Assembly (NCBI GenBank): GCA_964506575.1
Contig: CAZDLY010000003.1
Coordinates: forward strand, 41,240-105,239
Direction: 5' to 3'
Length of the DNA: 64,000 nucleotides
DNA from: an uncultured Akkermansia sp.
GTDB taxonomy: Bacteria > Verrucomicrobiota > Kiritimatiellia > RFP12 > JAAYNR01
This document shows positions 18,824-62,079 of the stretch, piece by piece (position 1 is the first letter of the stretch; each line of letters begins with the position of its first letter). The position numbers were made by a program, and so were the translations under genes. Below the pieces are notes generated by a model. The model saw only the letters and a list, made by a program, of their open reading frames with translations. It was not told the origin of the DNA and made no database searches.

Positions 18824-18849
18824 GTTGGGCACTCCTTAAATCCTATCCC

Positions 18850-34972: not shown

Positions 34973-34977
34973 TCAGC

Positions 34978-35858: not shown

Positions 35859-35990
35859 GAGGCGCTTGCAAGAGAGGAGTCAGGAGTCAGAATACAGGAG
35901 TCAGAATAATCGAACACCCATTCTGAATACTGAATACTGGCTTCTGAATACTGCGCTTGCAAAACCGACGAAGGAGGTTTTGCAAGCGCC
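35859..35990. repeat. REP-like element: GGCGCTTGCAA, then heptamer repeats (GAGTCAG/AATACAG), their inverted complement (ATTCTGA/ATACTGA), then the GCGCTTGCAAAAC-12 nt-GTTTTGCAAGCGCC hairpin
   Basis: Sits exactly between the convergent XRE gene (stop 35858) and the 637-aa membrane protein gene (stop 35991) and is a probable bidirectional terminator. Confidence 0.7.
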
Positions 35991-37904
35991 TTATGGACCA
36001 CGCTGCCAGGTGAGGATGGACAGGTTGCCCTCTTCCGCCAGCTGGGCGAGGCGCGTCTGGAGGGCGGCATCGAGCGCTTCGTCGCGGTCCCAGACGATGA
36101 GGAGCGTCCGCTTTGAGACGGCGCCCGACTGGCGGCGCTCGCTCATGATAACGGCCATATCCTCGAGCATCGCGCGGCAGGGGGCGTCACCGCTGATGAC
36201 CGGAACGTAGCGGCCGAACCACGCGGCGTCGAAGGCGAACTCGCTGCCCGTCGGCAGCCTCGCCGCGCCATAGCGGAGGATCGGCACGCGCCACAGCGGA
36301 ATTTCGGCGAACGTGATTTTTCGCTCGCCGCGGCGGAGCAGGCGGACATAGCGGACCAGTTGCGGCGGCCAGGTGATCACTCCCTTGCCCAGCCACAGGC
36401 CCCCCGCGCCAAGCCCGCGCAGCCGCGCGCGGGTCCATCGGCCCAGGCGCGCCAGCGCGCGGGGCAGCCCGCGAAGCAGGACGGCTTCCCGGTCATCGAG
36501 CCACCGCGCGACGCGGGCCAGCCCCCGAGCCACGGCGCCCCGATGCTGCCACAGCCGCGGACCCAGACGCGCCAGCGCCAACGCCAGGGCCGCCGTTCCC
36601 ATCCAGAGGCTCCGTCCGGCGCCAGCCAGCCGCCGCGGGAGGGGCTGGCCGGCCGCCGCCCCTGCGGTTGCCCGGCTCAGACCGTCGTCCGGCCGCTTGG
36701 ACTGCCGCCCCAGGAACCGGGACAACTCGCCCAGTATCCGCTGCACATGATCATCCATCCGCTCCAGGAAGCGGGTTGTGACCTCCACACGCCGATGCCA
36801 CGACGGCGCGATCCGGCTCCACAGACCCGTCGCGAACCGGGCGCTCCGCGCGAGCCTCTCGCCCAGGGCCTGCCAGCGCCGCCGCAGATAAGCCCCGGCC
36901 TGGGGCCACACCGTGTCGGCATGGTCTCCGAACCACGGAATGAACAGGGAGAGCCGTGACACGGCGGACTTCGACGCCCAGAGCGGGCGCCGGCCGAAAT
37001 AGATCACGTTCTCGCCCTTGCGGATCGCGCGTCCGAGGAAGGCTTCGGGAGGCGCATACGGCTCGTCGCCCGGCCGCAGCGTCTGCGTGGGTCGCTTGGG
37101 CGAGAACGCATCGATCGACCCGCCCGACAGCGGCAGCGGCCACCACGTGTTCCACGGTGCGTTAAACGTCACGACGTAATTCCACAGGAGCGTCATCACT
37201 GCGGCGATCAACACCAGATTGATCAGCATCCGGGAGAGGCGATGGATCTGGCGGACGACGCGAAGCTGGGCCTCTTTCATGTAAACCACTTTTTTCTCGT
37301 GAGCCAGCCCCTCAGCCTCCGCGTCTGACCCCCCATTCTCGTCGAGCGACACCGGAGCGCCGGCGCCGTCCACCTGATTCGTCCCCCGGACCTTGGCCAC
37401 CTGATTCGTCCCCCGGACCTTGGCGCCCGGCTGGGTCGCGCCCGGAACGGTGCGGCTCTTTTTGCCTCTCTCGCGCCAGGTTGGCGTCGTCCCGGAATAG
37501 CCGCCCTGCACGAGATCCTCGGGAGTATCCTCCGCGAAGGTCACTCCGGCGGCGAGATCTTTCGTTTTTTTGGGGGTTGCGGCCGCCTCATCGCCGGTTT
37601 CGGCGTTCGGGGTCTGTTCCGCGGCGGCGGCCTCATCCGCCTTCTCTTCGGCTTCCAGCGCTTTCTCCGCCGCCATCTGTTTCCGCATCTCTTCGGCCCG
37701 GTCGAGTTTGATCCCCGAGAACCAGTAATCGTTCTTCAGTCCATAGAGCATCGAGGCGAGCAGCGCCAGCCCCACGGCGAGCAGGTAGACGCGCGGCCGC
37801 GAGGCCTGGCGCATCACCCGCACGAGGACATAGAGAGACCCCGCCCAGGCGATGAGCGCCAAGGCCCCCAGCAGACCCGTGTAGGGGAAGAGTTTGTCGA
37901 TCAT
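35991..37904 (-). CDS. Hypothetical membrane protein (637 aa)
   Basis: ATG at 37904 overlaps the upstream stop (ATGA). N-terminal TM helices, a central Lys/Ala/Glu-rich charged segment and a hydrophobic middle region. Last gene of cluster 2. Confidence 0.65.
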   Translation of the reverse strand: MIDKLFPYTGLLGALALIAWAGSLYVLVRVMRQASRPRVYLLAVGLALLASMLYGLKNDYWFSGIKLDRAEEMRKQMAAEKALEAEEKADEAAAAEQTPNAETGDEAAATPKKTKDLAAGVTFAEDTPEDLVQGGYSGTTPTWRERGKKSRTVPGATQPGAKVRGTNQVAKVRGTNQVDGAGAPVSLDENGGSDAEAEGLAHEKKVVYMKEAQLRVVRQIHRLSRMLINLVLIAAVMTLLWNYVVTFNAPWNTWWPLPLSGGSIDAFSPKRPTQTLRPGDEPYAPPEAFLGRAIRKGENVIYFGRRPLWASKSAVSRLSLFIPWFGDHADTVWPQAGAYLRRRWQALGERLARSARFATGLWSRIAPSWHRRVEVTTRFLERMDDHVQRILGELSRFLGRQSKRPDDGLSRATAGAAAGQPLPRRLAGAGRSLWMGTAALALALARLGPRLWQHRGAVARGLARVARWLDDREAVLLRGLPRALARLGRWTRARLRGLGAGGLWLGKGVITWPPQLVRYVRLLRRGERKITFAEIPLWRVPILRYGAARLPTGSEFAFDAAWFGRYVPVISGDAPCRAMLEDMAVIMSERRQSGAVSKRTLLIVWDRDEALDAALQTRLAQLAEEGNLSILTWQRGP

Positions 37905-39490
37905 TGTTTACGGAGCTTCCGCGTGAGTTCAAGGTAATTGGTGAACGAGTAATAGATGATGTTCACACCCATCTCCAGCGCGCCTTCGGCCTTCTGGGCG
38001 GAGAGGCCGCCGCGGTTGTTCTTCCAGGCGTCGTTGATATCGCCCGGATGGTAGAAGACCCCCCAGCGTCCCTTGTACTTGATGCCCAGGGCCCGCGTGC
38101 CGCCATGATGCCACAGAGGCGGGGCGCCGTTTCGGAACGCGAACGGAAGCTGGAAGATCACGTCATCGTCGGCGATATTCAGCAACGGCTCGCCGGGGAA
38201 GACCCGACGGATGAATCCCCGGAAATGCTGGTCCCATTGCGGACTCCCGCAATCGGCAAACAGCATGCCGCCGCCCTGGATGTACTCACGCAGGATTCTG
38301 ACATCCCGGTCCGAAACCCCGATGCCGCCATCCCCGGTCATGTAGACGAACGGCGGCGCAAACCCCTTGGGATAGCGGGCGAGCAGCGCGATGCTGTGGG
38401 CCTCGGTCTTGGTCGAGGTCTTGAACTGGGTCAGTTGACGGAAGTAGTCCAGGAAGTTCAGGTCTGCGCGCGTCGCGGTCTCCATCCCGTCATCCCAGCC
38501 GGAGCCGTCGTATTTTAACCGGATGAAGCGCACGAGACCCTCGTCCATGCCATCCGGCCAGCCGCCCGTGTTGCCGCCGCCCACACCCATCTTGCCCCCT
38601 TTTGAATGCACGCGGCTGGTATTGGTCTCGTAGGTCGAGCGGGACACTTTCTCGACCTCCTCCGAAACCGGGGAATCGTCCAGCTTCGGAAAGTTGAACG
38701 TGATCGGGGAGTATTTGTTGATGATCGGGCGTTTTTTGGGTTTCTTGACCTTGACCACCTGAATTTTTGTGGCAACGGCGAGATTCCCGCTCCCTTTCTT
38801 GATGCGGTAGGGGTTGACGCAACCGGGAACGAGCGTCAGAAGCCAGGGCAGGATGAAGATGATGAAAAAATGGAGGTGGCTGCTGGCCCACAGACTCTTG
38901 CGATAGCGCGGGTCGCCGCCGTGGGTTCGGATATTTTCGAGAAACCGGTCTCCCGTGGCCGGCTCGGTCTCGTCATTGCCGAGCCACTGGCGGATCGCCG
39001 CGCGCCGCCACGCGAGGAGGTACAGAGCGGCGATCACCGCGCTCGCGAGCAGGACCGGCCAGAGGAGCTCCCACCGCCACATGAACACGTCATACGCGGC
39101 GGCCTTCTTCCCGTCCAGGCTCAGCCCCTTCTTCATGATGACGCCGGTCGCCTGATGCGCGACCACCCCGCACATCAGCGCCAGGGCGTAGAAGAGCAGA
39201 CAGGCCTTGCGGTAGAGGCTGAGCGTGATCCGGTTCCGGAGGAAGACGCTGATGCCCGCCGTGGCCAGCAGCAGGGTCGCGGTCAGGCACGCGACCAGCG
39301 AGGTGAACAGGATCAGGCGGTCCACGCCCTCATAACCCAACATCTCCGCGACATCGGCATGGCGGAGGCTCCACAGAAAATAGCGATCCGGCAACTCCAG
39401 CGAAAAAGTCCCGCACACCCACGCTGCCAGACTCATCAAGAGACACAGCAGCGGCGGCCAGGTGAACAACTTATGTCGTCTGTTGGGCAT
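37901..39490 (-). CDS. DUF4159 domain-containing membrane protein
   Basis: 529 aa with a multi-TM N-terminal half and a C-terminal domain (RFIRLKYDGSGWDDG...MLFADCGSPQWDQHFRGFI...VNIIYYSFTNY) that matches my recollection of the DUF4159 family, which is common in PVC bacteria and Bacteroidetes. Confidence 0.75.
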   Translation of the reverse strand: MPNRRHKLFTWPPLLCLLMSLAAWVCGTFSLELPDRYFLWSLRHADVAEMLGYEGVDRLILFTSLVACLTATLLLATAGISVFLRNRITLSLYRKACLLFYALALMCGVVAHQATGVIMKKGLSLDGKKAAAYDVFMWRWELLWPVLLASAVIAALYLLAWRRAAIRQWLGNDETEPATGDRFLENIRTHGGDPRYRKSLWASSHLHFFIIFILPWLLTLVPGCVNPYRIKKGSGNLAVATKIQVVKVKKPKKRPIINKYSPITFNFPKLDDSPVSEEVEKVSRSTYETNTSRVHSKGGKMGVGGGNTGGWPDGMDEGLVRFIRLKYDGSGWDDGMETATRADLNFLDYFRQLTQFKTSTKTEAHSIALLARYPKGFAPPFVYMTGDGGIGVSDRDVRILREYIQGGGMLFADCGSPQWDQHFRGFIRRVFPGEPLLNIADDDVIFQLPFAFRNGAPPLWHHGGTRALGIKYKGRWGVFYHPGDINDAWKNNRGGLSAQKAEGALEMGVNIIYYSFTNYLELTRKLRKQ

Positions 39491-39540
39491 GTGGTATCAG
39501 CGTCCGTCGTTCGGAAACCATGCGGGTGGGGCGGGGTGCT

Positions 39541-40029
39541 TCACTTGCCGCCGAGATTGGGTTCGTCCAAAACCGTGCTCAGCTCGCTGCCCATCGTGGG
39601 CATATCCTCGGGGGCGGCGACGTCGGTCATCCGCCTGGCCACGGCCGAGTTGGTGGCGCCCGCGGGAAAACCCTCCAGATAGCGCGACTGGGCCGTGTTC
39701 GTGTTGGCGGGGGGTGCATTGGTGGTGGTGGCCGCGGCCGGCACGGTGTTGGTGGCGCCGGCCACGCCATTCGTGCCGATCACCGCCGCGGCGGCCGCGG
39801 CAGCCTGCGCCTTGGCCTGGCGCTTCTTTTCGGCCTCTGCCGCAGCCTTGCGCTCCACCGCCCCCTCCGGGTCGACATAGGTGTCGCGGATGTACGTGAG
39901 CGATGTCATGCCGACGACCACCACGTGGATGGCGATGGCGACAATCGTCCAGAAGGCGATGCGCTTGCCCGCGAAGTTGGAAAGCAGGCGGTCCAGGTTC
40001 TGCGTCGATTGCTCGGTTGTCTCATTCAT
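39541..40029 (-). CDS. TolA/TonB-like membrane anchor protein (short cytoplasmic N-term, one TM helix containing a His, Ala/Lys/Glu-rich periplasmic segment)
   Basis: 162 aa from the ATG at 40029 (AAGGAGAA RBS). The ORF track's GTG start at 40071 is less likely. TM helix FWTIVAIAIHVVVVGMTSL, then AAEAEKKRQAKAQAAAAAAA and a T/N/P-rich tail. It directly follows exbD-exbD. Confidence 0.55.
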   Translation of the reverse strand: MNETTEQSTQNLDRLLSNFAGKRIAFWTIVAIAIHVVVVGMTSLTYIRDTYVDPEGAVERKAAAEAEKKRQAKAQAAAAAAAVIGTNGVAGATNTVPAAATTTNAPPANTNTAQSRYLEGFPAGATNSAVARRMTDVAAPEDMPTMGSELSTVLDEPNLGGK

Positions 40030-40067
40030 GGCGGTCCTATTCTCCTTGTCCCGGTCAGTGATCCCTG

Positions 40068-40484
40068 TCACTCGTTCTTGCGTTTCTCGCCGATGGCTAC
40101 GATGACGCCCCCGGCGCTGGCGATGGCATCGAGCACCGGCTCGAAGACCCGTTTTGAGGCGAAGCGGTCACACTTGAACAGCACCATCCGCGCTTTCGGC
40201 GTGGTCTTGTTCTCGAGCGCCTTCTCGATCAGCAGCTTGACGGTCTGCACGTCATTGACCAGCTCCCCGTCCAGGAAGATGGCGCCCGCCTCATCGATCA
40301 CCACCGAGATTTTGGCATTCTCCACGGCCTTGAGGTCCACCGCATCGGCGGGCTTGTATTTGATCTTGCCCTCCTGGGCGAAGTTGCTGCACACCATGAA
40401 GAAGATGTTCAGCAGAAAGGCGATGTCGCCCATGCTGGTGGTCGGCACCGAGATGCCCATCTTCTTTCTGCGGCGCAGTTTCAC
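40068..40484 (-). CDS. exbD: Biopolymer transport protein ExbD/TolR
   Basis: 138 aa with an ExbD-like N-terminal TM (GDIAFLLNIFFMV) and periplasmic domain. GTG start 2 nt after the upstream stop; an alternative ATG lies at 40460. Confidence 0.8.
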   Translation of the reverse strand: MKLRRRKKMGISVPTTSMGDIAFLLNIFFMVCSNFAQEGKIKYKPADAVDLKAVENAKISVVIDEAGAIFLDGELVNDVQTVKLLIEKALENKTTPKARMVLFKCDRFASKRVFEPVLDAIASAGGVIVAIGEKRKNE

Positions 40485-40486
40485 GG

Positions 40487-40897
40487 CTATTTCGTCTCCG
40501 TCATGATGCCGACCACGCCGCCGGCTGCGGAAATGGCCGCCATGACCTCGTAATAGTTCTGATAATCGGTCTCCGGCGTGGCGTCCATCAAGATGACCTT
40601 GGCCGCATCCTTCCGGTCGGCCAGTTTCATTTCGGCCAGCTTGGCCTTGAACGCCTCCATCGAGACATCCGCTTCCAGGAACTTGATCTGGTTCGCCTTC
40701 AGCGTGACCGTCGGCGTCTTCTCCTCGGTTTTCTTCTCTTCTTCCTTGCTGGCGGGCAGCTCGGTCTCGAACCCGACGATGTTCTTGAGCGATGTCGTGA
40801 TGATAAAGAAGATGATGAGCAGGAAGGCGATGTCCGAGAACGAATCGGTCGGAACACCGCCGTCCGGCCGCCGCTTGATGAATGGCTTGAACGACAT
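40487..40897 (-). CDS. exbD: Biopolymer transport protein ExbD/TolR
   Basis: 136 aa with the SDIAFLLIIFFIIT TM motif and a GAGAGGGGAGGG RBS. Confidence 0.85.
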   Translation of the reverse strand: MSFKPFIKRRPDGGVPTDSFSDIAFLLIIFFIITTSLKNIVGFETELPASKEEEKKTEEKTPTVTLKANQIKFLEADVSMEAFKAKLAEMKLADRKDAAKVILMDATPETDYQNYYEVMAAISAAGGVVGIMTETK

Positions 40898-40917
40898 CGC
40901 GCCCTCCCCTCTCCGGC

Positions 40918-41577
40918 CTACGCCTTGGCCGGCGCCACGTGGTGCGTCAGGGAGACATGATCGAGAATCTCGGAACCGGCCTCAGCGGCCTCGATCTCGA
41001 TGGACTCCGAGCACCCCATGAAATAATGGTGCGGGATCACGGCCATCATGGCGATCAGCAGGCCGGCGGCCGTGGTGATGAGCGCCTCCGAAATACCGGA
41101 GGCCACGATCGCGGCGTCGACGTCGCCCGCGGCGGCGATGGCGCCGAACGACCGGATCATGCCGGTCACGGTGCCGGTCATCCCGAAGAGCGGCGCCGAC
41201 GTGCCGATGAACGAGAGGATGTTCATCCGTTTCTCGACGATGTTCATGGCCATCCGGGCGTAATCGGCCATCGCGTCCTGCATGATGGCGCGGAGCGTCT
41301 CGCCGTTGGAGGTGACCACCCGGTGCCGGATGTAGGATTGCAGCCCCGCGGCCATCACGGCCGACACCGGGCCCGGCGTCGTGAGGCAGATGGCCAGCGC
41401 GTCGGCATACTTGCCCGCGATCATCTGGTTCTGCACCTTGGCCCGGAGCGTCCGGACGTCCACGCGGCTGTTGGCGCGGAAGGCCATCCACCGATCCAGC
41501 GCCACGGCAACCGCCAGGACGCTTTCGGCCATCAGGATAATCATCAGGGGTCCGCCATCAATCAGTGTCTTTAACAT
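40918..41577 (-). CDS. exbB: MotA/TolQ/ExbB proton-channel family protein
   Basis: 219 aa with 3 TM helices and a conserved C-terminal core (FGMTGTVTGMIRSFGAIAAAG...EALITTAAGLLIAMMAVIPHHYF). AAGAGGA RBS. Confidence 0.9.
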   Translation of the reverse strand: MLKTLIDGGPLMIILMAESVLAVAVALDRWMAFRANSRVDVRTLRAKVQNQMIAGKYADALAICLTTPGPVSAVMAAGLQSYIRHRVVTSNGETLRAIMQDAMADYARMAMNIVEKRMNILSFIGTSAPLFGMTGTVTGMIRSFGAIAAAGDVDAAIVASGISEALITTAAGLLIAMMAVIPHHYFMGCSESIEIEAAEAGSEILDHVSLTHHVAPAKA

Positions 41578-41580
41578 AAC

Positions 41581-41991
41581 CTATCCTCTTCTCATTTGCG
41601 CCAGCGCCTGCGCCGCCTCCACAGGCGGCACGGCGACGGTCTGCACCGGCAATTCGGCCGGCACGAAAACCAGTTCCCCGGTTACGGTGTTATACTGCGT
41701 CTTCCTCAGTTCCGCCAGCGGGATCCGGCGGCAGAGCGGCCGGGGGCCCTGGGCCAGGATCACCAGGGCCGTCGGGGTGAACGCCAGCCAGATGCGCCCC
41801 TTGCCGAACCAACTGCCGGTGTCTATGGCGGTGGCGGTCCGGACAACCGCCAGCACCGCCTCCCCGCCGAGGTGGCGGAGGAGCAGCTCGAGCCGCCCCG
41901 GACCGAGGGCGCGCAACTCCGCGCCGGCGGGGTCCAGCGGCTGTGCGGCTGCGGGCGGCAGCGCGTCCGGTATGCGGCGGTTCGCTCTCAT
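41581..41991 (-). CDS. Hypothetical small protein (136 aa) between the giant gene and exbB
   Basis: ATG at 41991, 15 nt after the giant-protein stop and 3 nt before the exbB start. No recognised domain. Confidence 0.5.
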   Translation of the reverse strand: MRANRRIPDALPPAAAQPLDPAGAELRALGPGRLELLLRHLGGEAVLAVVRTATAIDTGSWFGKGRIWLAFTPTALVILAQGPRPLCRRIPLAELRKTQYNTVTGELVFVPAELPVQTVAVPPVEAAQALAQMRRG

Positions 41992-42006
41992 GGTCGTTGC
42001 GCGTTC

Positions 42007-45000
42007 CTATTCCATTTGCTTGAAAGCCCCGTCCGTCAGGCGGCCGCGGGCATAGCGGGCCCACTTGGATTCGGGATAGTCCCAGGTGCAGAGCCTGAAC
42101 ATGCGGTAGGCGCCGACCGGATTCATCGCCTGCATATAGGCGTCGCCGCACCAGTACATGGACTGCGCGATCAGGTCGGGCGCGCCCTTCTTTTCCGCGA
42201 TCACCGCCTCATAGGTGGTGATCGCCTTGTCGAACTCCTTGGCCCGGAGCCAGTTCTCGGCCGACAGCACCTTGGTGCTGGCCGCGAGCCTGTGATCGGG
42301 GAACCGCACCGACAACCGGCCGAACACCTGCGCCGCCGTACGGAAGAATTCCCGGGCCTGCAGCTTGCGCTTTCCAGCCGCAACGAGATCCGTCTCCTGG
42401 GCCGCCTCCGTCTCGAGGAGCCGGCCCTTGTTAAAGAAGAAGAGGCCGAGCCGGGAGATGGTCTCCGCGATCAGCTCGTGGTTGGGGTAGCGGTACGAGA
42501 GCTTGACGTACTCGTCGCAGGCCGTGTCGATCTCCCCCATCCGCTCGTAGACCAGCGCCTTCTTGAACTGCGCTTTCGGGGCGTACGCGCTGTCGGGGTA
42601 GCCGCTGATCACGTCGGCGAAGCGGTTGGCCGCATCCCGATAGAGCTGGTTGCGCTTCTCGGGTTGCGTGGTCTGCTCGCCCTCCTCGAACGCGAGGTTG
42701 GCCAGCAGGTAGTCGGCCTGGACGCGGAACTCGTTCTTCGGGAAGTCCCGAATCGCCTCCTCCAGCAGCTTCTTGCCTTGCGCGATCGTCCGGCGGGCGA
42801 CCTCATCCTCTTTGAGCCCGCGATATTTCTTGGCCATCTCGAAGTAGGACTCGGCCATCGTGAACTGGGTCTGGACCGCGATTTCGGCATCGTTGAAGCG
42901 CTTGCTGAACGGCGTGACGGTGGCATCGGCGCCCTTGAACACCGAGAGTGCGCGATCCAGCGTGCGCCCGTCCTGGGCCGTGTACCGGAGCACGACCGTG
43001 GCGCCGTAGGGAACGGCGATCTGGTCGGCCAGCCGCGTTTCGTTCGTCATGCCCTCGTAGACGAGCTGGAGGTTGCCCTTGAACACCCCGGAGTTCTCGA
43101 ACGTCTCGATCAGCGGAACCGTCTTGGCGGTCTGCGCGGCGCCATTGACGACAACCGACAGGGAGACCGTGTCCTTCTCCATCGTGAGATTGGACATCAG
43201 ATCGACGACGCGCAGATACAGCCGGTCCCCCACATAAAGCGCCGAGAGCGGCTCCCTGTACCGCTGGTCCATGACGTCAAAGATCGGATCGCCGAACAGG
43301 CTGACATCCCACACCTCCCACTTCGGCTCGGCCTCGGCAGGCGAGCTGTTCATCGCCACGCGCAGCCGGTCGCTGGGCCGCACCCGCAGCGTGGGCCACG
43401 GGAACGTGCGATTGATCGACGCCGACTGGCCATCCTCCGTGAGGCAGGCGACGTCAAACACGCCCATCTCCACGCCTTCTTCCTCCTTCTCCTGATACGT
43501 CGGCATCTTCATCTGCTCGAGCGAGCCGGGCGCGGTCGCGATGCTGAACACGTAGCGGCCGTCGTCCGCCACCGAGCCGGCGAACTTGTCGCCGACGAGC
43601 GTGGTCGAACCGTACGTCACCGGCATTTCGCCGGCGGCGCCGCCGCCCCGCAGCGCCCGGTAACGGATCGTTCCGGGCAGTTTCGGGTCGAAAGGCGCGC
43701 CATTGGTGACCACGGGCTTCATGCCCGCCGGCAGGATCTGAACGAATATCTCGGCCTCGCTGAGCGCGGAGAACGCGAGGGAGGGGTTGAGCAGCTCGGC
43801 CACCAAGAATCCGCCGTACGGAATTTTCACCGGCCCCTTCGGAACCGCGCTTTCCGGGCGCACGCCCGTCAGCGCGTATGCAGGCGCAATCGCCTCGAGG
43901 CTTTCGGCCGTCTTCTTGGACGCCGGGGCGCTCACGGCCACCGCCCGCCCGTCCGCGTTCAGGGGCCTCGACGTGAAATCATACACGCGCAACTGGGACT
44001 TCATCGGGCCCAGTGGCGGCTCGAGCTGCACCACCCGGTCCCAGGGCACGCCGAAATCGACGTTTTCCTTGTCGCGGTAGGTGATCACGAGATCGTCTTC
44101 CTGGGTCACGGTGATTTCCGCCGGCCGCTTGGCCTCGCCCAGGATCGGGAAGAACCGGCTGACGAACAAGCCGCTGGCCGGCTTGTTCTCCAGCATCACC
44201 AGGTCGGTCTTGCTGCCCGTGACCGTCGCGCGCACATGCACGGGGACCTTGTCCGGATTCGCGGTCTCGTCGGCGTCGGGGTCGTTGACCACGATGGCCA
44301 TCGGTTCGTCCGGCCGGAACCGGTTGTTCGGCAGCAACAACGCCCGGCGCTCGCCCGCCGGCGTCACATCGCTTTCGATCAGATAGGCCTTGAGCGACGC
44401 ATTGTAGAAGGTGGTGGACAGAAACGCCTCCAGTGTCTTGCGCGCCGGCGTGATCACGGTCCGGTCTTCGTAGGTGATCGTGATCTTGTCGCCCGGGACG
44501 ATCTCGAGGATATCGTTGCCGCGCATGGTGATGAGATCCTCCTTGGCGGGGAGGACCTGCTTGCCGGCCGCGTCGGTCAGCGCGATCTTCCGGATTTCAG
44601 GGGCGCCGGACTCGAAATCAAAGATCTTGAGACGCAGCACCCGGCCGCGGGTTTCGGGGGCGAACGCGACATCAAACACGGTCCCGTCCGGGTTGGCCTT
44701 GATTTCCGTGGGCTTGAACCCGGGCGGCGCCTGGTGCTCCGGCCACCCGGCGGGGGTGAAGACCGCCTCCGGCACGGGCGCGGTATAGGGGGCCGTCTCA
44801 ACGTCCCAGAGGAGCTGATAGCCCCCCTCCGCGCCGCTGGGAATCACCGCATACAGGTCGAGCGTGTGGTACCCGCGGGTCAGCGTGACGGTGTTGTTAC
44901 GGTCATTGCTGCCGGGGGGCGCCCCCTGTTGCGCGGCCCCCAGGGCTCCGTCAATGGCGAGGTAATAGGTCGGTTCGACCCGCTTCGCCGGATCCGACTT

Positions 45001-48000: not shown

Positions 48001-50265
48001 GGAGCGCGCCTGGATCGCCTTGGCCAGCACCTCCGCGAGCTTGTCGCGCAGCGCATTGTCTTCCGCCCGCGGGCGGAGCACCACACCCCAGTCGAGCCGC
48101 CAGCCGTTGCGGGTCGCGAGCATCTGCGCACAGACCGCCGCGCCGCGGCGCTGCGCCGGGTCTTCCTGCCGCAGCGCGAGCTGGTCGGCGAACAGGCCGA
48201 TCTGGTGGTCCAGACAGGCCAGCGCGTCCGCGCGCGGCGTCATGAGGAGCGCGAGCAGCTTCTCGCCGAAGGGGGTCTTGTTCTTCTGGTACTCGCGAAC
48301 GGACGCATACAGGGACTTGGCCGCCGTCGCATACGCGGCGGCGTCGCCGGCCTCCACGGCCTTGAGCAGCGAGGCGACGTCCCGGCACTGCTGATTCGGC
48401 GCCTTCGCCGGGTCGGCCTTGGCCGCGATGGCCTGCTTGAAGGCCTCTTCGATCTTGGCGATCTGGGTCACGACGGCTTCCAGTTCCGCGCGGCGCCTGA
48501 CCTCCGCCTCGCCCGTCTTGCCGGCCAGGCTGTCGGCCTGCTTGCGCATCGTCTGGCTCCACGCGCGGAAGGCGGTCTGCGCGGCCTCGAACACCCGGTC
48601 GCGGCTCTCAACCCCCGCGTAGGGCACGAGGGGCGCCCAGTCCAGCTTGCCCAGCAGGACGATGAAGCGGTCCCGGCGCGCCGCGTCGGTGCTGCAATAA
48701 TTCCAGGCGTTGAGCAGCGCGTGGCGGATATGCTGGGGGGAGAAGGGCGTCATCACGCTGTTCAGGAGGGGGCCTTCCAGGAAGGCCAGATACGCCTCCT
48801 GGGCATAGGCGTCGCGATCGGCCGGCTGGGGCAACCCCTTCAGGTTGACCCAGGCGGGGATGATCTGGTTAAAGACCAGATACGGGAATACTTCGACGTC
48901 GCCCTGCGGGATGGGCCTCTGCACGGCTGCATCCCGGAAGGGCATGTACCACGACTCCTGCGCGAGCAGGTGCTGGATCGAACCGATGGGGTCGTTGGCG
49001 GCCGCCAGGGCGTTGATCACCGCGGCGATGTAAAACGTCTGGCCGGCCAGGAACGGAGCCTGGGCCTTGTAAACCGCCGGGTTGGTGGCCTGCGTGATCC
49101 ACGGCAACTGTCCCGTCGCCGCGGCCTTCTGGAACGCCTGCGGATGCTTGCCGCCGAGCGCGATCCACTGGTCGGGCGTGGCCAGCCCGGCGGGCAGCCC
49201 GGCCCACGACCAGTTGATGAAGGCGATCTGCTCGGCTTCGGGGAGCTTGCTGAAGGCGTAGGTGGCGAGGAACTCGCTCTTCTGCGCGGCGGCCGCGCTC
49301 CAGAGGCCCGAATCCGGCTGCCCGGCGCCGCGGCCGGGCGCGGCCGGCAGGTCGGGTCCGCCGGCGAAGGCCGCCATGATCTGGATCAGCGTCTGCGCCG
49401 TCGGCGCGGCGTCCAGGTAGGCCCGCGCGGCGGCGAGGACCGGGTCCAGGGCGCGGGCGAGCGCGGGGGCATCCCGCCCGACGCGGGTCTCATGAAACGC
49501 GATGTTCTCGATCAGGAAGGCGAGGCGCGCCTGGCGAATCGGATCCTCGCGGATGAGCGGGATCAGGGCGCGCGCCGGAATGATCGCCTCGGCGTTTCCG
49601 GGATAGACGGTCTCCAGCCGGTTGATCAGCCGGTCCAGATGGTGCCAGTAGATGAAACGCTCCTGCTCCAGCGGCAGTTTCTCGGAGAAGGCCGTCAGCA
49701 GCCGCTTGGCCATGGCGCCGGTGGCGCGGTTCTGGAAGCCGGTATCGAGATACCACCCGTCGTATTGCCTGGGCAGGGCCGCCAGACGGAATTTGTCGCC
49801 GAAGTCGTTGTTCGCGGCCCACGCCTCGACGCCCTTCCCGGCGTAGTCCGCCAGGACTTGGAAGCACTCGCCCGCCGCCTGGGATGAATCGGCGTCCACC
49901 GGCGCAATCTGGAGGAACTGCCGGTAGCGCGCGGCCGCGGCCTGATAATCGCCCGCCAGCTTCGCATTCTCCGCCGCCAGGCGCAGGATCCGGGGACCCG
50001 GATCGGCGCGCCGGGACAGGTAGCTGCGCACGACACTGGAGACCCGCTGGGGCTGGCCGAGGTCACGCCCCTCCTGCAGCAGGGCGATCAGCTCATCCGG
50101 CTGCAGGCCTTCCACCGAGCTTTGCGCGCGGCCCAGCAGCTCGTCAAATTTAGCCGTCCGCGGGTTTGCGGCCGCCGGGGCGGCTGCCGGGGCGGCTGCC
50201 GGGGTTTGCGCCACCGCCGTCCAGACCGACCCGAGAACGCACGTGACAAGCATGAATCGTTTCAT
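42007..50265 (-). CDS. Giant secreted protein (2752 aa) with a signal peptide and a C-terminal TPR-like region
   Basis: ATG at 50265 with an AGGAGAAA RBS (MKRFMLVTCVLGSVWTAVAQTP signal peptide). Ordinary amino-acid composition across 8.2 kb. The C-terminal roughly 350 aa are TPR-like (YFEMAKKY...YLLANLAFEEGE...ALVYERMGEIDTACDEY...). The antisense ORF 41596..49887 (2763 aa, R/G/L/P-rich) is rejected. Confidence 0.8.
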   Translation of the reverse strand: MKRFMLVTCVLGSVWTAVAQTPAAAPAAAPAAANPRTAKFDELLGRAQSSVEGLQPDELIALLQEGRDLGQPQRVSSVVRSYLSRRADPGPRILRLAAENAKLAGDYQAAAARYRQFLQIAPVDADSSQAAGECFQVLADYAGKGVEAWAANNDFGDKFRLAALPRQYDGWYLDTGFQNRATGAMAKRLLTAFSEKLPLEQERFIYWHHLDRLINRLETVYPGNAEAIIPARALIPLIREDPIRQARLAFLIENIAFHETRVGRDAPALARALDPVLAAARAYLDAAPTAQTLIQIMAAFAGGPDLPAAPGRGAGQPDSGLWSAAAAQKSEFLATYAFSKLPEAEQIAFINWSWAGLPAGLATPDQWIALGGKHPQAFQKAAATGQLPWITQATNPAVYKAQAPFLAGQTFYIAAVINALAAANDPIGSIQHLLAQESWYMPFRDAAVQRPIPQGDVEVFPYLVFNQIIPAWVNLKGLPQPADRDAYAQEAYLAFLEGPLLNSVMTPFSPQHIRHALLNAWNYCSTDAARRDRFIVLLGKLDWAPLVPYAGVESRDRVFEAAQTAFRAWSQTMRKQADSLAGKTGEAEVRRRAELEAVVTQIAKIEEAFKQAIAAKADPAKAPNQQCRDVASLLKAVEAGDAAAYATAAKSLYASVREYQKNKTPFGEKLLALLMTPRADALACLDHQIGLFADQLALRQEDPAQRRGAAVCAQMLATRNGWRLDWGVVLRPRAEDNALRDKLAEVLAKAIQARSAKDQWDGDVFNWYRGVARPEGAQAQAVLGEIIDRDIFTKNNGGHYAPSPVCGYLAMVREFPALQAKYPQQSWFDDRMAAEIKRTGKVDQSYWNYAGDGEKKVANAIAEKYAADTSYAVFLGAPGKPAQVSRDDYFAAAERIRSASGAAFGDYQKKIEAEFGKTRFDPPAAGLWSLAVMPVKTPDERKAFFDRLRAYTALAKNAPYPFPMPALQQVNSLQLGGTAPLTEDEVLALAGCLRYTRWAVYSPTDYRLIQLVNDGLLARDQITELLPLIPEMWRIALGRGETMALLGGIAGKLIEEDRTVPAAAHSTIGLAVAGSRLPDDIRNALTAIRTKMQSRVGESLTVGRSDRRYTILAAQALFHAGRTDSAWDLYTQNPGLALTEFKDLDLGFVIWIVQRLTALDRFEEAEKLAQTLLQWIEAAPQGFDTGTRAQVQIAYADIAFARQQYPQAKAQYDRIVSSKDFADTPGGYRAELKIAEVDRLMRSYDAALERLEKLDRLRDTSIQAEARYQIALLKFDQEDYASAREQVARVFAIAPNHSEAGLLEGKVNFKTAKLIEATDIRIGVPADQQTIIPGRPFRVNLEDRNLSIVRKAADIEIRAWTDSGDEEFFQLFPFGDSKTRFRGEIPTTMAPLVKGDHLLQVLGGDKVHFGLSERFRKVANITRDDIGTLGVITDGELYAASGSIPTREDQERMAMEASLRRELARSGAQSAEGAQLLQLLNAPKEGAEVKLSAVRSSTEIKPGNPIYIRVIDPDGNTTHQKDTLTVRAAATSGDTVKRVVLTETDTHTGVFEGKLATLSAPATAFASDTAEGRDPTAVIVADPKLLPWAGSADDNRNKTFSIDLKDSVAFGKLTMTADVAGRKLKRFALQTSMNGSEFAMVGSWPGATAAWDGSLRLRLVNYGPPASTLAAGLLTPTDRQAQVKEFFDVGRLQFDNPIEIAPGHVSGDLSQAVRAAEAKLGGKSASGLTLAHLQGTFYIQKRQKRTFTVQPQADAKSDPAKRVEPTYYLAIDGALGAAQQGAPPGSNDRNNTVTLTRGYHTLDLYAVIPSGAEGGYQLLWDVETAPYTAPVPEAVFTPAGWPEHQAPPGFKPTEIKANPDGTVFDVAFAPETRGRVLRLKIFDFESGAPEIRKIALTDAAGKQVLPAKEDLITMRGNDILEIVPGDKITITYEDRTVITPARKTLEAFLSTTFYNASLKAYLIESDVTPAGERRALLLPNNRFRPDEPMAIVVNDPDADETANPDKVPVHVRATVTGSKTDLVMLENKPASGLFVSRFFPILGEAKRPAEITVTQEDDLVITYRDKENVDFGVPWDRVVQLEPPLGPMKSQLRVYDFTSRPLNADGRAVAVSAPASKKTAESLEAIAPAYALTGVRPESAVPKGPVKIPYGGFLVAELLNPSLAFSALSEAEIFVQILPAGMKPVVTNGAPFDPKLPGTIRYRALRGGGAAGEMPVTYGSTTLVGDKFAGSVADDGRYVFSIATAPGSLEQMKMPTYQEKEEEGVEMGVFDVACLTEDGQSASINRTFPWPTLRVRPSDRLRVAMNSSPAEAEPKWEVWDVSLFGDPIFDVMDQRYREPLSALYVGDRLYLRVVDLMSNLTMEKDTVSLSVVVNGAAQTAKTVPLIETFENSGVFKGNLQLVYEGMTNETRLADQIAVPYGATVVLRYTAQDGRTLDRALSVFKGADATVTPFSKRFNDAEIAVQTQFTMAESYFEMAKKYRGLKEDEVARRTIAQGKKLLEEAIRDFPKNEFRVQADYLLANLAFEEGEQTTQPEKRNQLYRDAANRFADVISGYPDSAYAPKAQFKKALVYERMGEIDTACDEYVKLSYRYPNHELIAETISRLGLFFFNKGRLLETEAAQETDLVAAGKRKLQAREFFRTAAQVFGRLSVRFPDHRLAASTKVLSAENWLRAKEFDKAITTYEAVIAEKKGAPDLIAQSMYWCGDAYMQAMNPVGAYRMFRLCTWDYPESKWARYARGRLTDGAFKQME

Positions 50266-50298
50266 AAAATGTTTCTCCTGTTTCGTTCCGTACAACGG

Positions 50299-52584
50299 TT
50301 ACATCACCCGCGCCTCGATCTTGGGCAGAAGCTGTCGCGCGGTCTCGGCATGCGGACTGTCGGGGTATTCCAGCAGGAGCTTCTTGCACTTCTCCTGAGC
50401 TTTGGCAAAATCGCCCGTCTGGAAGGCGACCTTCACCCACTTGATCAGCATGGTGTCGAGGAAGGTGGCGTCGGGATAATCCTGGAACGTCTGTTCCAGC
50501 AGCGAATTGGCCTGCGCCAAATCGTTCTGGGCGATGTTGTAGTCGATCACCTTGCCCAGCGCGGGGCCGGCAAAGATGCTTTTGGGATACCGCTGCACGC
50601 ACGTCATGTACGACTGGATCGAGACGCTGTCGCCGGCTTTGAACATCGCCTCGCGAGCCTCGCCGCTCGCCTTGGCCAGCTTCGCCTGATAGCTGGCTTC
50701 CTGGGTCTTGGCGATCTCGAATTGGGCCTCGGCCTTGGCGTCCATGGCGGCGCTCGGCAATTGCGTGATCTGCTGAAACACCGCGATCGCCTCGCCATAC
50801 TGTTTTTCCTCCAGCCGGATCTTGCCCACGCCGAGCAGCGCGTCCCCGACCAGCGGCGAGTCGGGATAGAACCGGCTGAACGTCGCGCAGGTCGCCAGAG
50901 CCTCCGCAAGCTGGCCGGCCTCGATGTGCAGCTCCCACTTGACCTTGAAGGCATCCTGCTTGAGCGCTTCGCCAACGTCGCGGTTGTCGCTGCGGATGAC
51001 CGACTCGACACGCGTGATGCCTTCGGCGGCCCGGGCGACGGTGCCGTTCACCAGCCCCATGCTTTTGAAGATGCGGGCCAGCTCGAGATAGGCCGTGGCC
51101 TCGACCAGATTCTTTTTCGCCCGCAGCACGGGATCAAACACCACGTCCGTGGTCGATTTGACGGTGCTGTCGACCTCGCCCGCCACGGTCACGACGGCAT
51201 CGACGACGCGCGGCGCGTCGCCCTGAATGTGCTGATTGTCGGTGTAGGCGACGTACACGTCGTCTTCGACGCAGCAGGCGAGCTGGTTGTCCGACTGATC
51301 GGCCGGCAGGGACTCATCCGCGCGCACGATGTCGACCTTGCCCGCGAACCGTCCGCTGCGGAAGACCGTGTTGGTGCTCTGCTCGACGAGTTTCACGTCG
51401 ACGCGGTCGCGCGTCTGGTAGCGCGTGGCGCCGGCATCGGCAAACGCCGACTGGGCCTCGTCCTCCGCGCGGACCTTGTAGCGGGAGATCACGCTCAGGG
51501 TGACCGTTTCGGCCTTGTCGCTCGTGTCCAGATCGGCGTCAACCACCTGGATGAAGAGCGGCAGGGCGAGAAACGCGGCGGGCGCGCGCGTCTCGAGGTC
51601 GCCCATCATGAAGTCGATCGATCCGGTGGAGACCATGCGCACCGAGGCCGTGCGCGGGACATTGCCCGCGCCGTCCTTCGTGCTTTCATCGACGAACGTG
51701 GCGGTCACCTTCTGGCCGCCCACCACCTGAAGCACGCGGTCGCCCGGCACGGGAACGCCGATCGCCGTCGGCAGCGAGCCGATCAGGATTTGCGCATCGG
51801 GCGTCAGGAGCGCGCAGTCGACGGTCTCCTTGTCGCCCGCATCCGTCTCCAGCCTCAGCGTGATCTTCTTCCCCATCTTCAGCATGATGGGGAAGTCGGC
51901 GTCCTCGACCTTGACGTAGAAGCGCCGGCCGGCTTCGGCAAAGGCGATGGTCGGGCTGTCGGGGTCCAGAAAGGTGCCGACCAGGCTCAGCGCTTCGATC
52001 GCCTTGGTCCAGTTTTCCTGGGCGAAGTGGCACATGCCGATGTAATAATAGGCCTGGTTGGCCCACAGGGTGTTGGGATACTTGGTCGTGATATGGCGGA
52101 GCACGGGGAACGCCCGGGCGTACTGCCGGGTCTGAAAATAGGCGGTCCCCATGAGGTACATCGCCTCCAGAAACCACTCGCGATCCTCGCCCACGGCGAG
52201 TTTGTTTTCCGGTTCGAGTACCCGCAGCCGGTTCAGATAGCCGATCGCCTCCGGAATCTTTTCGTTGGCCTTGATGTAGTGCCGACCCAAGGCCAGGCAC
52301 GCGGGGAAGACCGAGCGGGAGCGCGGGAACTGCGCAAGCACCGTCTCGATCATCTTGATGCCGCGGTCGCGTTCGCCCGCATCGAGCAACTCCTTGCCGA
52401 GACCCAGCAACCGCCGCGCGTCGAGTTCGCCCGAAGCCGCCGCCGCCGTCCGGTCCGTGGCCGCCGTGCGCGACGCTTCGGGTTCGCCCGCCGCGGGCGC
52501 CGCGTTCGGCCACAGCCACACGCCCGCCCCCGCCATCAGGGTGACGACGGCCAAACGGGTGATTCGCTTGCTCTTAGGGTGCAT
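50299..52584 (-). CDS. Secreted tetratricopeptide-repeat protein (761 aa)
   Basis: ATG at 52584 with an AGGAGGAA RBS. N-terminal hydrophobic/signal region, then TPR-like repeats (AYFQTRQYARAFPVLRHITTKYPNTLWANQAYYYIGMCHFAQENWTKAIEAL...). Confidence 0.75.
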   Translation of the reverse strand: MHPKSKRITRLAVVTLMAGAGVWLWPNAAPAAGEPEASRTAATDRTAAAASGELDARRLLGLGKELLDAGERDRGIKMIETVLAQFPRSRSVFPACLALGRHYIKANEKIPEAIGYLNRLRVLEPENKLAVGEDREWFLEAMYLMGTAYFQTRQYARAFPVLRHITTKYPNTLWANQAYYYIGMCHFAQENWTKAIEALSLVGTFLDPDSPTIAFAEAGRRFYVKVEDADFPIMLKMGKKITLRLETDAGDKETVDCALLTPDAQILIGSLPTAIGVPVPGDRVLQVVGGQKVTATFVDESTKDGAGNVPRTASVRMVSTGSIDFMMGDLETRAPAAFLALPLFIQVVDADLDTSDKAETVTLSVISRYKVRAEDEAQSAFADAGATRYQTRDRVDVKLVEQSTNTVFRSGRFAGKVDIVRADESLPADQSDNQLACCVEDDVYVAYTDNQHIQGDAPRVVDAVVTVAGEVDSTVKSTTDVVFDPVLRAKKNLVEATAYLELARIFKSMGLVNGTVARAAEGITRVESVIRSDNRDVGEALKQDAFKVKWELHIEAGQLAEALATCATFSRFYPDSPLVGDALLGVGKIRLEEKQYGEAIAVFQQITQLPSAAMDAKAEAQFEIAKTQEASYQAKLAKASGEAREAMFKAGDSVSIQSYMTCVQRYPKSIFAGPALGKVIDYNIAQNDLAQANSLLEQTFQDYPDATFLDTMLIKWVKVAFQTGDFAKAQEKCKKLLLEYPDSPHAETARQLLPKIEARVM

Positions 52585-54325
52585 CTGTTGTTCCTCCTGA
52601 CGCTATTCCCAGGCGCTCCAGTTCGATATGCGCCGTGTTGGACTCCCCAGACTCTGGGTATTTCTTCATGACATCCCGCAACGCGCCAATGAAATTGGCC
52701 TGCTCGTTCGCGCCCCGATAGACATACGCAATTCGCAACGCCGCCCGTGAAGCCGATCCCGGAAAGAACTTCTCGATCCCGCGCAATTCCGCCAGCGCCG
52801 GATCCTTCTGCTTCAGGCGCAGCAGATTCTCGGCGATCCGGAAGTATTTCTCCGGCTCGTTGGATGAGATCTTGTAGCACTCGTTCGCTTCCGCGAATTT
52901 GCCGGACACCTCGAAAAGTTCAGCCCGCTGCCACTGAGCCCGGTCCGCGTACACGGGCATCTTGATCACCTCTTCGGAGACCTTCAGCCCCTTTTCGGTG
53001 AAACGTCTGGCATGGTAAGCCCAAAGCAGCGTGGCGCGTCCAAGATCGTGGTCCTTCATGCTCTGGCAGGCGCTGACGAACAGTTCTTCATCAACCCCGA
53101 TGGCCCAGCCGACGAATGCGGCGCGGTCCTGGTCGGTCCACTGGTCCTGCTTGATGTTGCCGTAGGCGTTCTTCGCCATCGAAATGTCTTTGAGCGAGTT
53201 CACCATGACCTTCATCAGCCGGAAAACCCCCGCATTGTCCATCTGGCCGAAGTTGATCTTGCCGTAGTATTCCTTGATCTTCGCTTTCTGGTCTTTCTTG
53301 CCGAACTCCTCCATGAAACGGAACACGAGATCGAAGAGGCCGGGCTTGTAGGTCGCCGCAAACTGCCGGTCCAGGCGCGCCACCCACTTGTCGATGTCGC
53401 CCTCCTCGCGATAGCGAAACTCGGCCCAGACCAGGCGGAACTCGTTGTCGGCGAGGAAACGGCCCTCCATGGCGTCGGCCCAGTACCGGTAGTACGCGAT
53501 GCGCTGGGCGTCTTCCTCCTTCGCAAAGGCGCCGAACCGGTCGATCAGGCGGCACATGTCCTGCCAGTACTTGGTCTCGTCCGGCGCTTCCGGGTTCTGC
53601 CGCGTGGTCTTGGCGCGGGTGTAGAAGTCGCTCATCTTCTGGTTGTCGGGCAGCAGCCGGATGTAGATGTAAGCCACCCGCTCGATCGCCTGCCGCGCCG
53701 ATTCGGGGTGGAGCGAGCGAAAATCAACGGCGGCCTGGTCGTAATATTTGAGCGCATCGGCATACTTCTCCTCGCGATACAGCTCGTTCGCAATGCCGAC
53801 GCGCGCCGGTCCGGCAAGTGCCTGCTTCGCATAGCCGGGGTCCTCCACCATCTTCCTCCACGCGGTCACGGCGTACCTCTTGTTGCCGTTCTCGAAATGA
53901 CACGCCCCCTGATAGTACAGCGCGGCCGCGGCATACGGCACGTCATCCGGGAAATAATCGACCACTTCCTTGAACGTCTGCACCGCCTCGTTCCGCTTGT
54001 TGTCCAACATCTGGCTGCGCCCTTTGCGCAGCAGCGCGTAGGCCACCGCGGGCGAGCGGGGGTTCGCCACGACAAAGGCATTGTACTCGACGACGGCCGT
54101 CCGATATTCCTTCGCGAGGAACACCTTGTCGGCCTTGCTCAACGTGGTCGCCTCAAAGGTGTCCAGCTTCTTGAAATCAGCCTCGGAAATGGTGACCTCG
54201 TCCCGGGGGGATTGGGCGCGGACGAGGCCGACGGCCAACACCCCGACGCACAACAGCCACACGCCCAGACGGCCTGCGCGCCGCCCGTCCCGTTGATCCG
54301 CAAATGGCCTTTCGATCCCCCGCAT
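52574..54325 (-). CDS. Secreted tetratricopeptide-repeat protein (about 583 aa)
   Basis: Start taken at the ATG at 54325 (MRGIERPF..GVWLLCVGVLAVGLVRAQSP signal-like). TPR-like helical repeats. Overlaps the next gene start by 11 nt. Confidence 0.65.
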   Translation of the reverse strand: MRGIERPFADQRDGRRAGRLGVWLLCVGVLAVGLVRAQSPRDEVTISEADFKKLDTFEATTLSKADKVFLAKEYRTAVVEYNAFVVANPRSPAVAYALLRKGRSQMLDNKRNEAVQTFKEVVDYFPDDVPYAAAALYYQGACHFENGNKRYAVTAWRKMVEDPGYAKQALAGPARVGIANELYREEKYADALKYYDQAAVDFRSLHPESARQAIERVAYIYIRLLPDNQKMSDFYTRAKTTRQNPEAPDETKYWQDMCRLIDRFGAFAKEEDAQRIAYYRYWADAMEGRFLADNEFRLVWAEFRYREEGDIDKWVARLDRQFAATYKPGLFDLVFRFMEEFGKKDQKAKIKEYYGKINFGQMDNAGVFRLMKVMVNSLKDISMAKNAYGNIKQDQWTDQDRAAFVGWAIGVDEELFVSACQSMKDHDLGRATLLWAYHARRFTEKGLKVSEEVIKMPVYADRAQWQRAELFEVSGKFAEANECYKISSNEPEKYFRIAENLLRLKQKDPALAELRGIEKFFPGSASRAALRIAYVYRGANEQANFIGALRDVMKKYPESGESNTAHIELERLGIASGGTTDAP

Positions 54326-61988: not shown

Positions 61989-62079
61989 TCCTGTCTTGCG
62001 ATTCATAAGTTTGTCATTATAGCGCATTCTGCCGCCGCCTGAGGTCAAAAATAAATCTGAATTTTGACCGAATTTTGAA

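Follow-up and report, generated by a model that had tools for sequence, protein, structure and literature searches.

A conserved ten-gene ExbB-ExbD-ExbD cassette encoding a DUF4159 protein and a giant, putatively exported TPR protein in an uncultured Kiritimatiellia bacterium

Genes and boundaries of the cassette

The window analysed here is a 64,000-nucleotide (nt) stretch of DNA from an uncultured Akkermansia sp. placed in the Kiritimatiellia (assembly GCA_964506575.1, contig CAZDLY010000003.1, positions 41,240 to 105,239 of the forward strand), with a G+C content of ~65%. Ten open reading frames (ORFs) lie head to tail on its minus strand, from 54325 down to 35991. In order, they encode two tetratricopeptide repeat (TPR) proteins, TPR583 and TPR761, a giant protein of 2752 amino acids (aa), a small soluble protein (136 aa), ExbB, two ExbD proteins, a single-pass membrane anchor (162 aa), a DUF4159 protein and a second multi-pass membrane protein, p637. 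An earlier note on this DNA had read these genes as a single minus-strand string, the second in the window to be built around an ExbB-ExbD-ExbD module. Independent gene calls on the source contig by the Joint Genome Institute (JGI) give proteins of 583, 761, 2752, 136, 219, 136, 130, 162, 522 and 637 aa in the same order; ORFs, Pfam matches and JGI calls thus agree on the string as it had been described, with start codons adjusted. The features of this cassette are as follows, with transmembrane (TM) helices counted by hydropathy.

54541..54592, minus strand: hairpin followed by UUUUUU, after a radical S-adenosylmethionine (KamA-like) gene; fold -35.6 kcal/mol, z -2.3, U6 directly after the stem
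54453..54482, minus strand: promoter-like site, TTGACC, 18-nt spacer, TATGAT; 10/12 consensus matches
52574..54325, minus strand: TPR583, 583 aa; TPR_6 2.9e-16; CpoB/YbgF-like module at aa ~97-196; signal-like segment
50299..52584, minus strand: TPR761, 761 aa; TPR_6/YfiO-type repeats; three CpoB/YbgF-like stretches
42007..50265, minus strand: giant protein, 2752 aa; signal peptide; TPR_6/YfiO-type repeats by Pfam at aa 1167-1313 and 2505-2606 only
41581..41991, minus strand: small soluble protein, 136 aa; no TM helix; always directly before exbB
40918..41577, minus strand: ExbB/TolQ-type proton channel subunit, 219 aa; MotA_ExbB (PF01618) 6e-26
40487..40897, minus strand: ExbD/TolR paralog 1 (ExbD1), 136 aa; ExbD (PF02472) 1.8e-18
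40068..40484, minus strand: ExbD/TolR paralog 2 (ExbD2), 138 aa (JGI 130 aa); ExbD (PF02472) 4.4e-14
39541..40029, minus strand: single-pass anchor, 162 aa; 1 TM helix; no Pfam match
37901..39490, minus strand: DUF4159 protein, 529 aa (JGI 522); 5 TM helices; DUF4159 (PF13709) at aa 321-516, 2.5e-30
35991..37904, minus strand: p637, 637 aa; 3 TM helices; alignment of 54 orthologs; no Pfam or PDB match
35953..35989, minus strand: hairpin, perfect 14 bp, directly after the p637 stop codon

The junctions between successive genes, calculated from the ORF coordinates, are -11, 33, 15, 3, 20, 2 (or 26), 38, 50 (or 71) and -4 nt, the last being a 4-nt ATGA overlap between the DUF4159 and p637 genes. 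At the head of the string, the maximal ORF of TPR583 reaches 54433, and the start that is consistent with a signal peptide is 54325. The hairpin with its U6 tract likely marks the upstream boundary of the unit, and the hairpin behind p637, which faces a convergent helix-turn-helix (HTH) gene, likely marks the downstream one. No convincing terminator was detected inside the ten-gene string, and a search of 34000-56500 for Rfam families gave no match. The promoter-like site falls in the 297-nt gap before TPR583; the whole scan returned four such sites against 2.7 expected in shuffled sequences, which is not an enrichment, and the promoter assignment is weak. Together, the tight junctions, the lack of a convincing internal terminator and the hairpins at both flanks bear out the earlier proposal of one conserved unit, and the ten genes are predicted to share one transcript.

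Conservation across PVC genomes

The gene order of the cassette was already visible in three neighbourhoods carrying different phylum labels. For a broader assessment of conservation, GTDB representatives, with a single genome for each species, were scanned using aligned sequences of the DUF4159 protein, which has more than 1000 homologs. This yielded 80 loci of one DUF4159 subfamily. According to a count of record titles, 74 of the 80 carry labels of the PVC superphylum (Planctomycetes-Verrucomicrobia-Chlamydiae), namely Kiritimatiellia, Lentisphaerae/Victivallales, Verrucomicrobiota, Planctomycetota (including Pirellulales and Phycisphaerae) or PVC group. The window proteins were then compared by phmmer with six-frame ORFs of the 80 loci, counting for each gene those loci with enough flanking sequence:

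giant protein: present in 56/60 loci
small soluble protein: present in 59/62 loci
ExbB: present in 63/65 loci
ExbD1: present in 65/67 loci
ExbD2: present in 71/73 loci
anchor: present in 70/75 loci
p637: present in 66/72 loci

Each neighbour is thus found in 92-97% of loci, and the eight genes from the giant to p637 are collinear in 68/68 loci that contain at least five of them. Because of this collinearity, the arrangement reflects more than chance. Sequence identity across loci is 20-50% for the small protein, the anchor and p637, and about 45-50% for the DUF4159 protein. That these are simply neighbours without a common function is extremely improbable, since an identical order persists in all 68 loci, under four PVC group labels, despite such low identity of three of the proteins. 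The giant and DUF4159 genes, whose failure ever to accompany exbBD would have spoken against the earlier note, are decisively associated with it, and almost all related genomes keep this order.

The upstream genes are less uniformly placed. A pair of TPR genes precedes the giant gene in one locus on a 7.7-Mb contig (L087), and a TPR761 homolog stands directly upstream of the giant gene in L001 and L087; a Verrucomicrobiia metagenome-assembled genome (MAG) has this placement. TPR genes occupy the upstream position of TPR583 in L087 (609 aa) and in L086 (434 aa); the latter locus, on a 6-Mb contig, has the TPR-TPR pair alone, with no giant adjoining. In two loci labelled Planctomycetota (L002 and L040), the small protein, ExbB, both ExbDs, the anchor and the DUF4159 protein stand alone as a split or reduced system, and the C-terminal peptide of the anchor is kept. 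These six genes appear to be the minimal conserved core. Genes outside the cassette differ between lineages. The first 310 residues of the DUF4159 protein matched only 130 cluster representatives out of 1.84 billion, which points to a narrow, specialised family.

Motor, anchor and partner proteins

The motor genes are the most readily classified. ExbB carries a MotA_ExbB domain with TM threonines, and both ExbDs carry an ExbD domain with a TM aspartate, the features that define MotA/TolQ/ExbB-ExbD/TolR motors. Residues T136, T169 and E164 of ExbB are conserved in at least 95% of orthologs, as are the TM aspartates D22 of ExbD1 (69 orthologs) and D20 of ExbD2 (71 orthologs). ExbB is TolQ-sized; its top NCBIfam match is TolQ, under that model's cut-off, and its top PDB matches are TolQ chains. 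The relative order of the two ExbD paralogs is constant in every locus, which dates their duplication far back. Thus, ExbB and two distinct ExbD paralogs show the sequence features of a working TolQR/ExbBD-type inner-membrane stator.

The anchor was aligned in sets of 71 and 66 orthologs, and the strings FWTIVAIAIHVVVVG and AAEAEKKRQAKAQAAAAAAA singled out in the earlier note are both found in its translation. A short cytoplasmic stretch (..PDxLLxxF..) is followed by a TM helix in which H35 and S43 are invariant, the Ser lying at H+8; a Ser upstream is not conserved. Right outside the membrane stands the conserved motif YIRDTWIDPEGA, with the pattern YIRDT(W/Y)(I/V)DPEGA, at a position that matches the "motor box" of TolA and TonB, as PMC12204202 describes it. 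The linker beyond is A/K/E-rich, then Pro/Ala/Thr-rich, and variable in length. It ends in a conserved acidic peptide of ~35 aa, ..PVVKxITExAxPxEIPxxPDDLGISIxDTN, with a net charge of -3. The alignments reveal no globular head domain: models for TonB_C (PF03544/PF13103), TolA and vWA (von Willebrand factor type A) match 0/66 orthologs, and a profile search against PDB sequences gave chance-level matches only. The anchor had been described as TolA/TonB-like; its topology and invariant TM His agree with that description, but its membership in either family does not hold.

A protein of this kind in the tonB/tolA gene position invites the reading that the cassette is an ordinary TonB-dependent energiser (ExbB-ExbD-ExbD-TonB) whose TonB is too divergent to recognise. 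The conserved motor residues are indeed shared with the Ton system, whose usual layout likewise places the gene for a single-pass, TM-His-bearing protein behind exbB-exbD-exbD. Against this, the ~35 conserved C-terminal residues leave no room for a head, and no TonB-dependent receptor is found among the genes of the window or those listed for related loci. The NCBIfam Ton equivalogs are not reached (exbB 59 vs 206; ExbD 33 vs 153-216), and the fixed partners are the DUF4159 protein, p637 and the giant. A divergent TonB is consequently very unlikely.

The DUF4159 protein combines its five TM helices with a C-terminal, glutamine-amidotransferase-like DUF4159 domain, identified by both domain match and fold. 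In its AlphaFold2 model, four TM helices form a bundle of high confidence; a further helix, a disordered stretch rich in Lys (aa 222-309) and an alpha/beta domain come after it. The acidic peptide of the anchor and the basic segment of this protein could be electrostatic partners. At the outer end of TM5, a Gly-Cys pair at aa 223-224 lies in an internal lipobox-like context ("LLxxxGC") and is conserved in at least 95% of 77 orthologs; cleavage and lipidation at Cys224 may free a lipoprotein DUF4159 domain from the four-TM bundle.

In the p637 family, a charged loop of ~150 aa separates two TM helices at the N-terminus from a third, behind which lies a conserved C-terminal domain of ~220 aa; by charge balance, this domain is probably cytoplasmic. 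Most orthologs are 329-450 aa long. The window protein is enlarged by a lineage-specific, Arg/Leu/Ala-rich, helical insertion of ~210 aa (aa ~322-535; window ~36300-36941) that is present only in it and its close relatives. A homolog search with p637 returned eight close relatives. The small soluble protein is probably cytoplasmic. Its G59 and W61 are invariant, and D57, Y100, N101, T104 and G105 are conserved in at least 90% of orthologs, giving the core DxGxW ... YNHVTGEL. Pfam returned no match in 56 orthologs, and a PDB profile search gave chance-level matches only. A role as a PilZ protein or cyclic di-GMP binder was considered and dropped, as the N-terminal RxxxR is not conserved. By these searches, the small protein and p637 each constitute a new family.

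Signal-like N-termini are seen in the giant, TPR761 and TPR583, in the orthologs of all three in L087 and in the ortholog of the giant in L058; the window and these two loci represent three divergent lineages. The N-terminus of the giant reads MKRFMLVTCVLGSVWTAVA/Q, giving 2752 aa. The earlier note had called these proteins secreted; the signal peptides agree with this as far as predicted export to the periplasm, which is the most they allow, and nothing beyond that compartment is supported. CpoB/YbgF-like TPR modules are present in all three proteins. On the TIGR02795 model (tol_pal_ybgF), TPR761 scores 91.1 bits against a cut-off of 90.1, although at 761 aa with three such stretches this does not imply orthology to CpoB, and TPR583 scores 61 bits, under the cut-off. 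TPR761 has 389 homologs, commonly at 45-50% identity, for which JGI uses the name "TolA-binding protein". In the giant, aa 2538-2629 match YbgF 2xev (5e-4) and CpoB 6g5s.

The orthologs of the giant align along their entire visible length in 61 loci. The first ~1330 residues are helix-rich by composition and contain TPR matches, followed by a non-TPR centre (~1335-2440) and the C-terminal CpoB/YbgF-like TPR. BLAST self-comparison detected no internal repeats, and a profile search of the centre against PDB sequences gave chance-level matches only. F5/8 type C (discoidin, galactose-binding-like) matches occur in 13/26 giant orthologs at one fixed central position, one of them above the Pfam cut-off; this position corresponds to aa ~1550-1635 of the window giant (window ~45360-45620), which itself falls below the reporting threshold. 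In two orthologs, weak MG2 matches lie just before it. The antisense strand of the giant gene carries a 2763-aa ORF (41596-49887, plus strand), a shadow ORF as expected in high-GC DNA and no second gene.

The F5/8 type C matches raise the question of whether the cassette drives uptake of macromolecules or polysaccharides into the periplasm by proton-motive force (pmf), with the giant binding glycans and the whole replacing TonB-dependent SusC-type import in PVC bacteria. Verrucomicrobiota have been reported to take labelled glycans into the periplasm or the cell by mechanisms that are not fully known (PMC13174399), which would fit such a machine, as would the recurrence of the matches at one conserved position in half of the giant orthologs and the absence of a TonB_C protein. 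However, a single F5/8 match exceeds the Pfam cut-off, the cassette has no conserved outer-membrane pore, carbohydrate-active enzyme or sulfatase, and the neighbouring genes vary by lineage. We regard glycan uptake as improbable.

Related systems and a proposed trans-envelope machine

Tichowtungia, by classification, belongs to the Kiritimatiellota. Starting from this genus, in which TolA and TonB were not discernible, Williams-Jones et al. (2025, Mol Biol Evol, PMC12204202) found PVC loci encoding "TPR, tolQ-like, two tolR-like, TMH-linker-vWA" force transducers. These loci resemble the cassette in their phyla, in an upstream TPR gene, and in one TolQ/ExbB-like gene ahead of two different TolR/ExbD-like ones, after which a single-pass protein bearing a conserved TM His takes the place of TonB/TolA. 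In contrast to those transducers, the anchor has neither vWA nor another globular head in any of 66 orthologs, and the cassette always includes the five-TM DUF4159 protein and usually the three-TM protein, the small soluble protein and the ~2700-aa exported protein. DUF4159, p637, the small protein and the giant were not found in the covered part of PMC12204202. Elsewhere in the searchable literature, there is no description of a DUF4159/giant cassette, "DUF4159" occurs only in the Pfam database paper, and neither Kamneva 2012 nor the V. spinosum essential-genome paper mentions the cassette genes.

Tol-Pal is another known system with similar parts. A PVC counterpart of Tol-Pal, stabilising or constricting the outer membrane at division with lineage-specific parts in place of TolB and Pal, would account for a TolQ-like channel that scores best against TolQ, a TolR-like partner with TM Asp, and a TM-His anchor with a TolA-like A/K/E-rich segment. 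It would also account for the CpoB/YbgF-like modules in three proteins, one of them above the TIGR02795 cut-off, and the "TolA-binding protein" label on TPR761 homologs, and it would suit the reported lack of discernible TolA and TonB in Tichowtungia (PMC12204202). However, the equivalog cut-offs are missed widely (TolQ 91.8 vs 221; TolR 36.3 vs 127.3), and neither the cassette nor the genes listed for related loci include a TolA C-terminal domain, TolB or Pal. In addition, the two ExbD paralogs and four conserved components have no known place in Tol-Pal. A direct counterpart is therefore unlikely.

A further comparison is available inside the window, in cluster 1:

18850-21900: TPR gene
18017-18832: TPR gene
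17016-17870: ExbB gene, accompanied by two ExbD genes and three genes for TM-linker-prenyltransferase-like proteins

The earlier note had seen the order of the cassette as mirroring that of cluster 1. The coarse logic is indeed common: exported TPR proteins come first, ExbB-ExbD-ExbD follow, and proteins that are anchored in the membrane and bear linkers close the series. It also matches the pattern reported for PVC loci (PMC12204202). The two ExbBs are 32% identical over an aligned segment of 142 residues. The anchors of cluster 1 differ from that of the cassette in that their cytoplasmic N-terminus is long, they lack the TM His and their head is a prenyltransferase-like toroid; cluster 1 also lacks a DUF4159 protein, a giant and a small soluble protein. 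Cluster 1 is a third variant of the motor-transducer layout. Its first and third tandem paralogs (10692-12395 and 14375-16078) share stretches of 99-100% identical DNA, for which a recent duplication, conversion between the genes or an artefact of assembly could account.

The earlier note had also drawn analogies to Myxococcus Agl-Glt and to GldLM/PorLM. If the cassette were an Agl-Glt-like machine for moving on or adhering to surfaces, this would fit its motor gene set, one ExbB/TolQ (TolQ-like) and two ExbD/TolR (TolR-like) genes, as well as its TPR proteins and giant TPR-containing protein. The Myxococcus giant is cytoplasmic, whereas the one described here carries a signal peptide and is predicted to be exported. 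No TonB_C-type equivalents of GltG or GltJ are present (0/66 anchors), and no outer-membrane barrel, other outer-membrane part or small GTPase module was recognised. The analogy is weak, and a machine of this kind is highly improbable. That to GldLM/PorLM finds no sequence support, as full Pfam scans of all cassette proteins gave no GldL or GldM domain. PADLOC defence models (ZorA/ZorB and others) did not match any of nine cassette proteins. The Akkermansia mucin loci were likewise set aside: MUL1 is described as Sus-like and without synteny in aquatic Akkermansiaceae genomes, MUL2 as consisting of pilus genes, and neither fits.

Several observations concern the sequence around the cassette. 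The window belongs to a JGI metagenome contig of freshwater type, and two of its proteins have exact copies on JGI 3300044991. A 333-aa ORF at 34870-35871 (minus strand) was considered as a further member of the unit; it has no family hit, overlaps a convergent HTH_3 regulator gene called by JGI at 35223-35858 (plus strand), and is probably spurious. The gap that separates this HTH_3 gene from the p637 hairpin contains, at 35860-35950, the short direct repeats GTATTCAG (three copies) and TTCTGACTCCTG (two copies), which may be operator sites. Farther away, G+C rises to 75.5% with an AT skew of +0.24 at 60001-62000, within an ORF (59991-62195) resembling 3-deoxy-D-manno-octulosonic acid (Kdo) kinase, which is unusual for the window. 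Two small genes (30983-31447 and 31638-32039) have prepilin-type N-terminal methylation motifs. Genes with such motifs are abundant in PVC genomes, and these two are consistent with the taxonomic placement.

The cassette is real, strongly conserved and a variant of the TolQR/ExbBD-transducer theme, and it is apparently undescribed. Our preferred reading, to which we assign a probability of roughly 0.5, is that it encodes a PVC-superphylum-specific, pmf-driven trans-envelope machine composed of motor, adaptor and scaffold. The anchor would act as a TonB/TolA-type force transducer, its His-bearing TM helix docking on the side of the ExbB pentamer and the conserved segment just outside the membrane contacting the periplasmic domains of ExbD, like the motor box of TonB/TolA. 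Its helical and then Pro/Ala/Thr-rich linker would span the periplasm, and its acidic C-terminal peptide, in place of a head, would dock on a partner. The CpoB/YbgF-like TPR modules of the three exported proteins would be the first candidates. They are the most attractive target of the peptide because CpoB is the TolA-binding protein of Tol-Pal, although the peptide is retained in the core-only loci, where no giant adjoins, so that DUF4159 or a TPR protein from another locus is an equally possible partner. The motor, stroke by stroke, would thereby tug at or reshape a very large TPR/beta scaffold in the periplasm. The five-TM DUF4159 protein and the three-TM p637 would be fixed partners in the inner membrane, and the 136-aa soluble protein would act at the cytoplasmic face of ExbB. 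As to its role, the likeliest guess is envelope maintenance or tethering, possibly with glycan binding, in lineages reported to lack recognisable TolA and TonB; glycan capture is the other candidate. Both mechanism and role are inferred from sequence.

Several findings weigh against the motor-adaptor-scaffold reading. A Lys/Arg-rich segment follows TM5 of the DUF4159 protein (aa 224-262; mean net charge +9.5 across orthologs), which, by the positive-inside rule, conflicts with a periplasmic DUF4159 domain and leaves the topology of DUF4159 ambiguous. In E. coli TonB and TolA, the Ser of the SHLS arrangement is spaced at ~H+11 from the TM His, compared with H+8 in the anchor. The cassette showed no recognisable TolB, Pal, peptidoglycan-binding domain or component of the outer membrane, and no giant lies beside the core in 4/60 loci. 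Two loci (L049 and L076) are unlinked second DUF4159 copies without any of the neighbours, in MAGs that also hold a full cassette. Finally, all 80 comparison genomes are MAGs with unverified labels, and since the loci were picked through the DUF4159 subfamily, the co-occurrence figures are valid for that subfamily only.

Taken as a whole, the interpretation in the earlier note is partly supported. Its idea of a motor family with exchangeable distal parts is reasonable, and PMC12204202 offers published support for it; that these parts would be swappable cargo or effectors is an inference. A bolder proposal is that the cassette is the missing energy coupling of PVC bacteria, with a headless TolA/TonB-like adaptor, an ExbB-ExbD1-ExbD2 motor and a 2700-aa TPR/discoidin scaffold serving either as a stand-in for Tol-Pal or for macromolecule uptake free of TonB receptors. 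We consider this rather unlikely. If true, it would concern lineages in which recognisable TolA and TonB are reported to be lacking (PMC12204202).

The envelopes of PVC bacteria are unusual, with enlarged periplasms, periplasmic glycan storage and, in some groups, division without FtsZ. For a superphylum in which at least one member has been reported to lack recognisable TolA and TonB (PMC12204202), the cassette offers a concrete and widely conserved candidate for energy coupling. Its parts are defined: one motor, an adaptor that has no head, the giant and two further TPR proteins with CpoB-like modules, and three or four families without a known function. For DUF4159, it gives the first firm functional context. 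Since the same gene order is found under Planctomycetota, Verrucomicrobiota, Lentisphaerae and Kiritimatiellia labels, a result obtained in one species would probably be transferable to the others.

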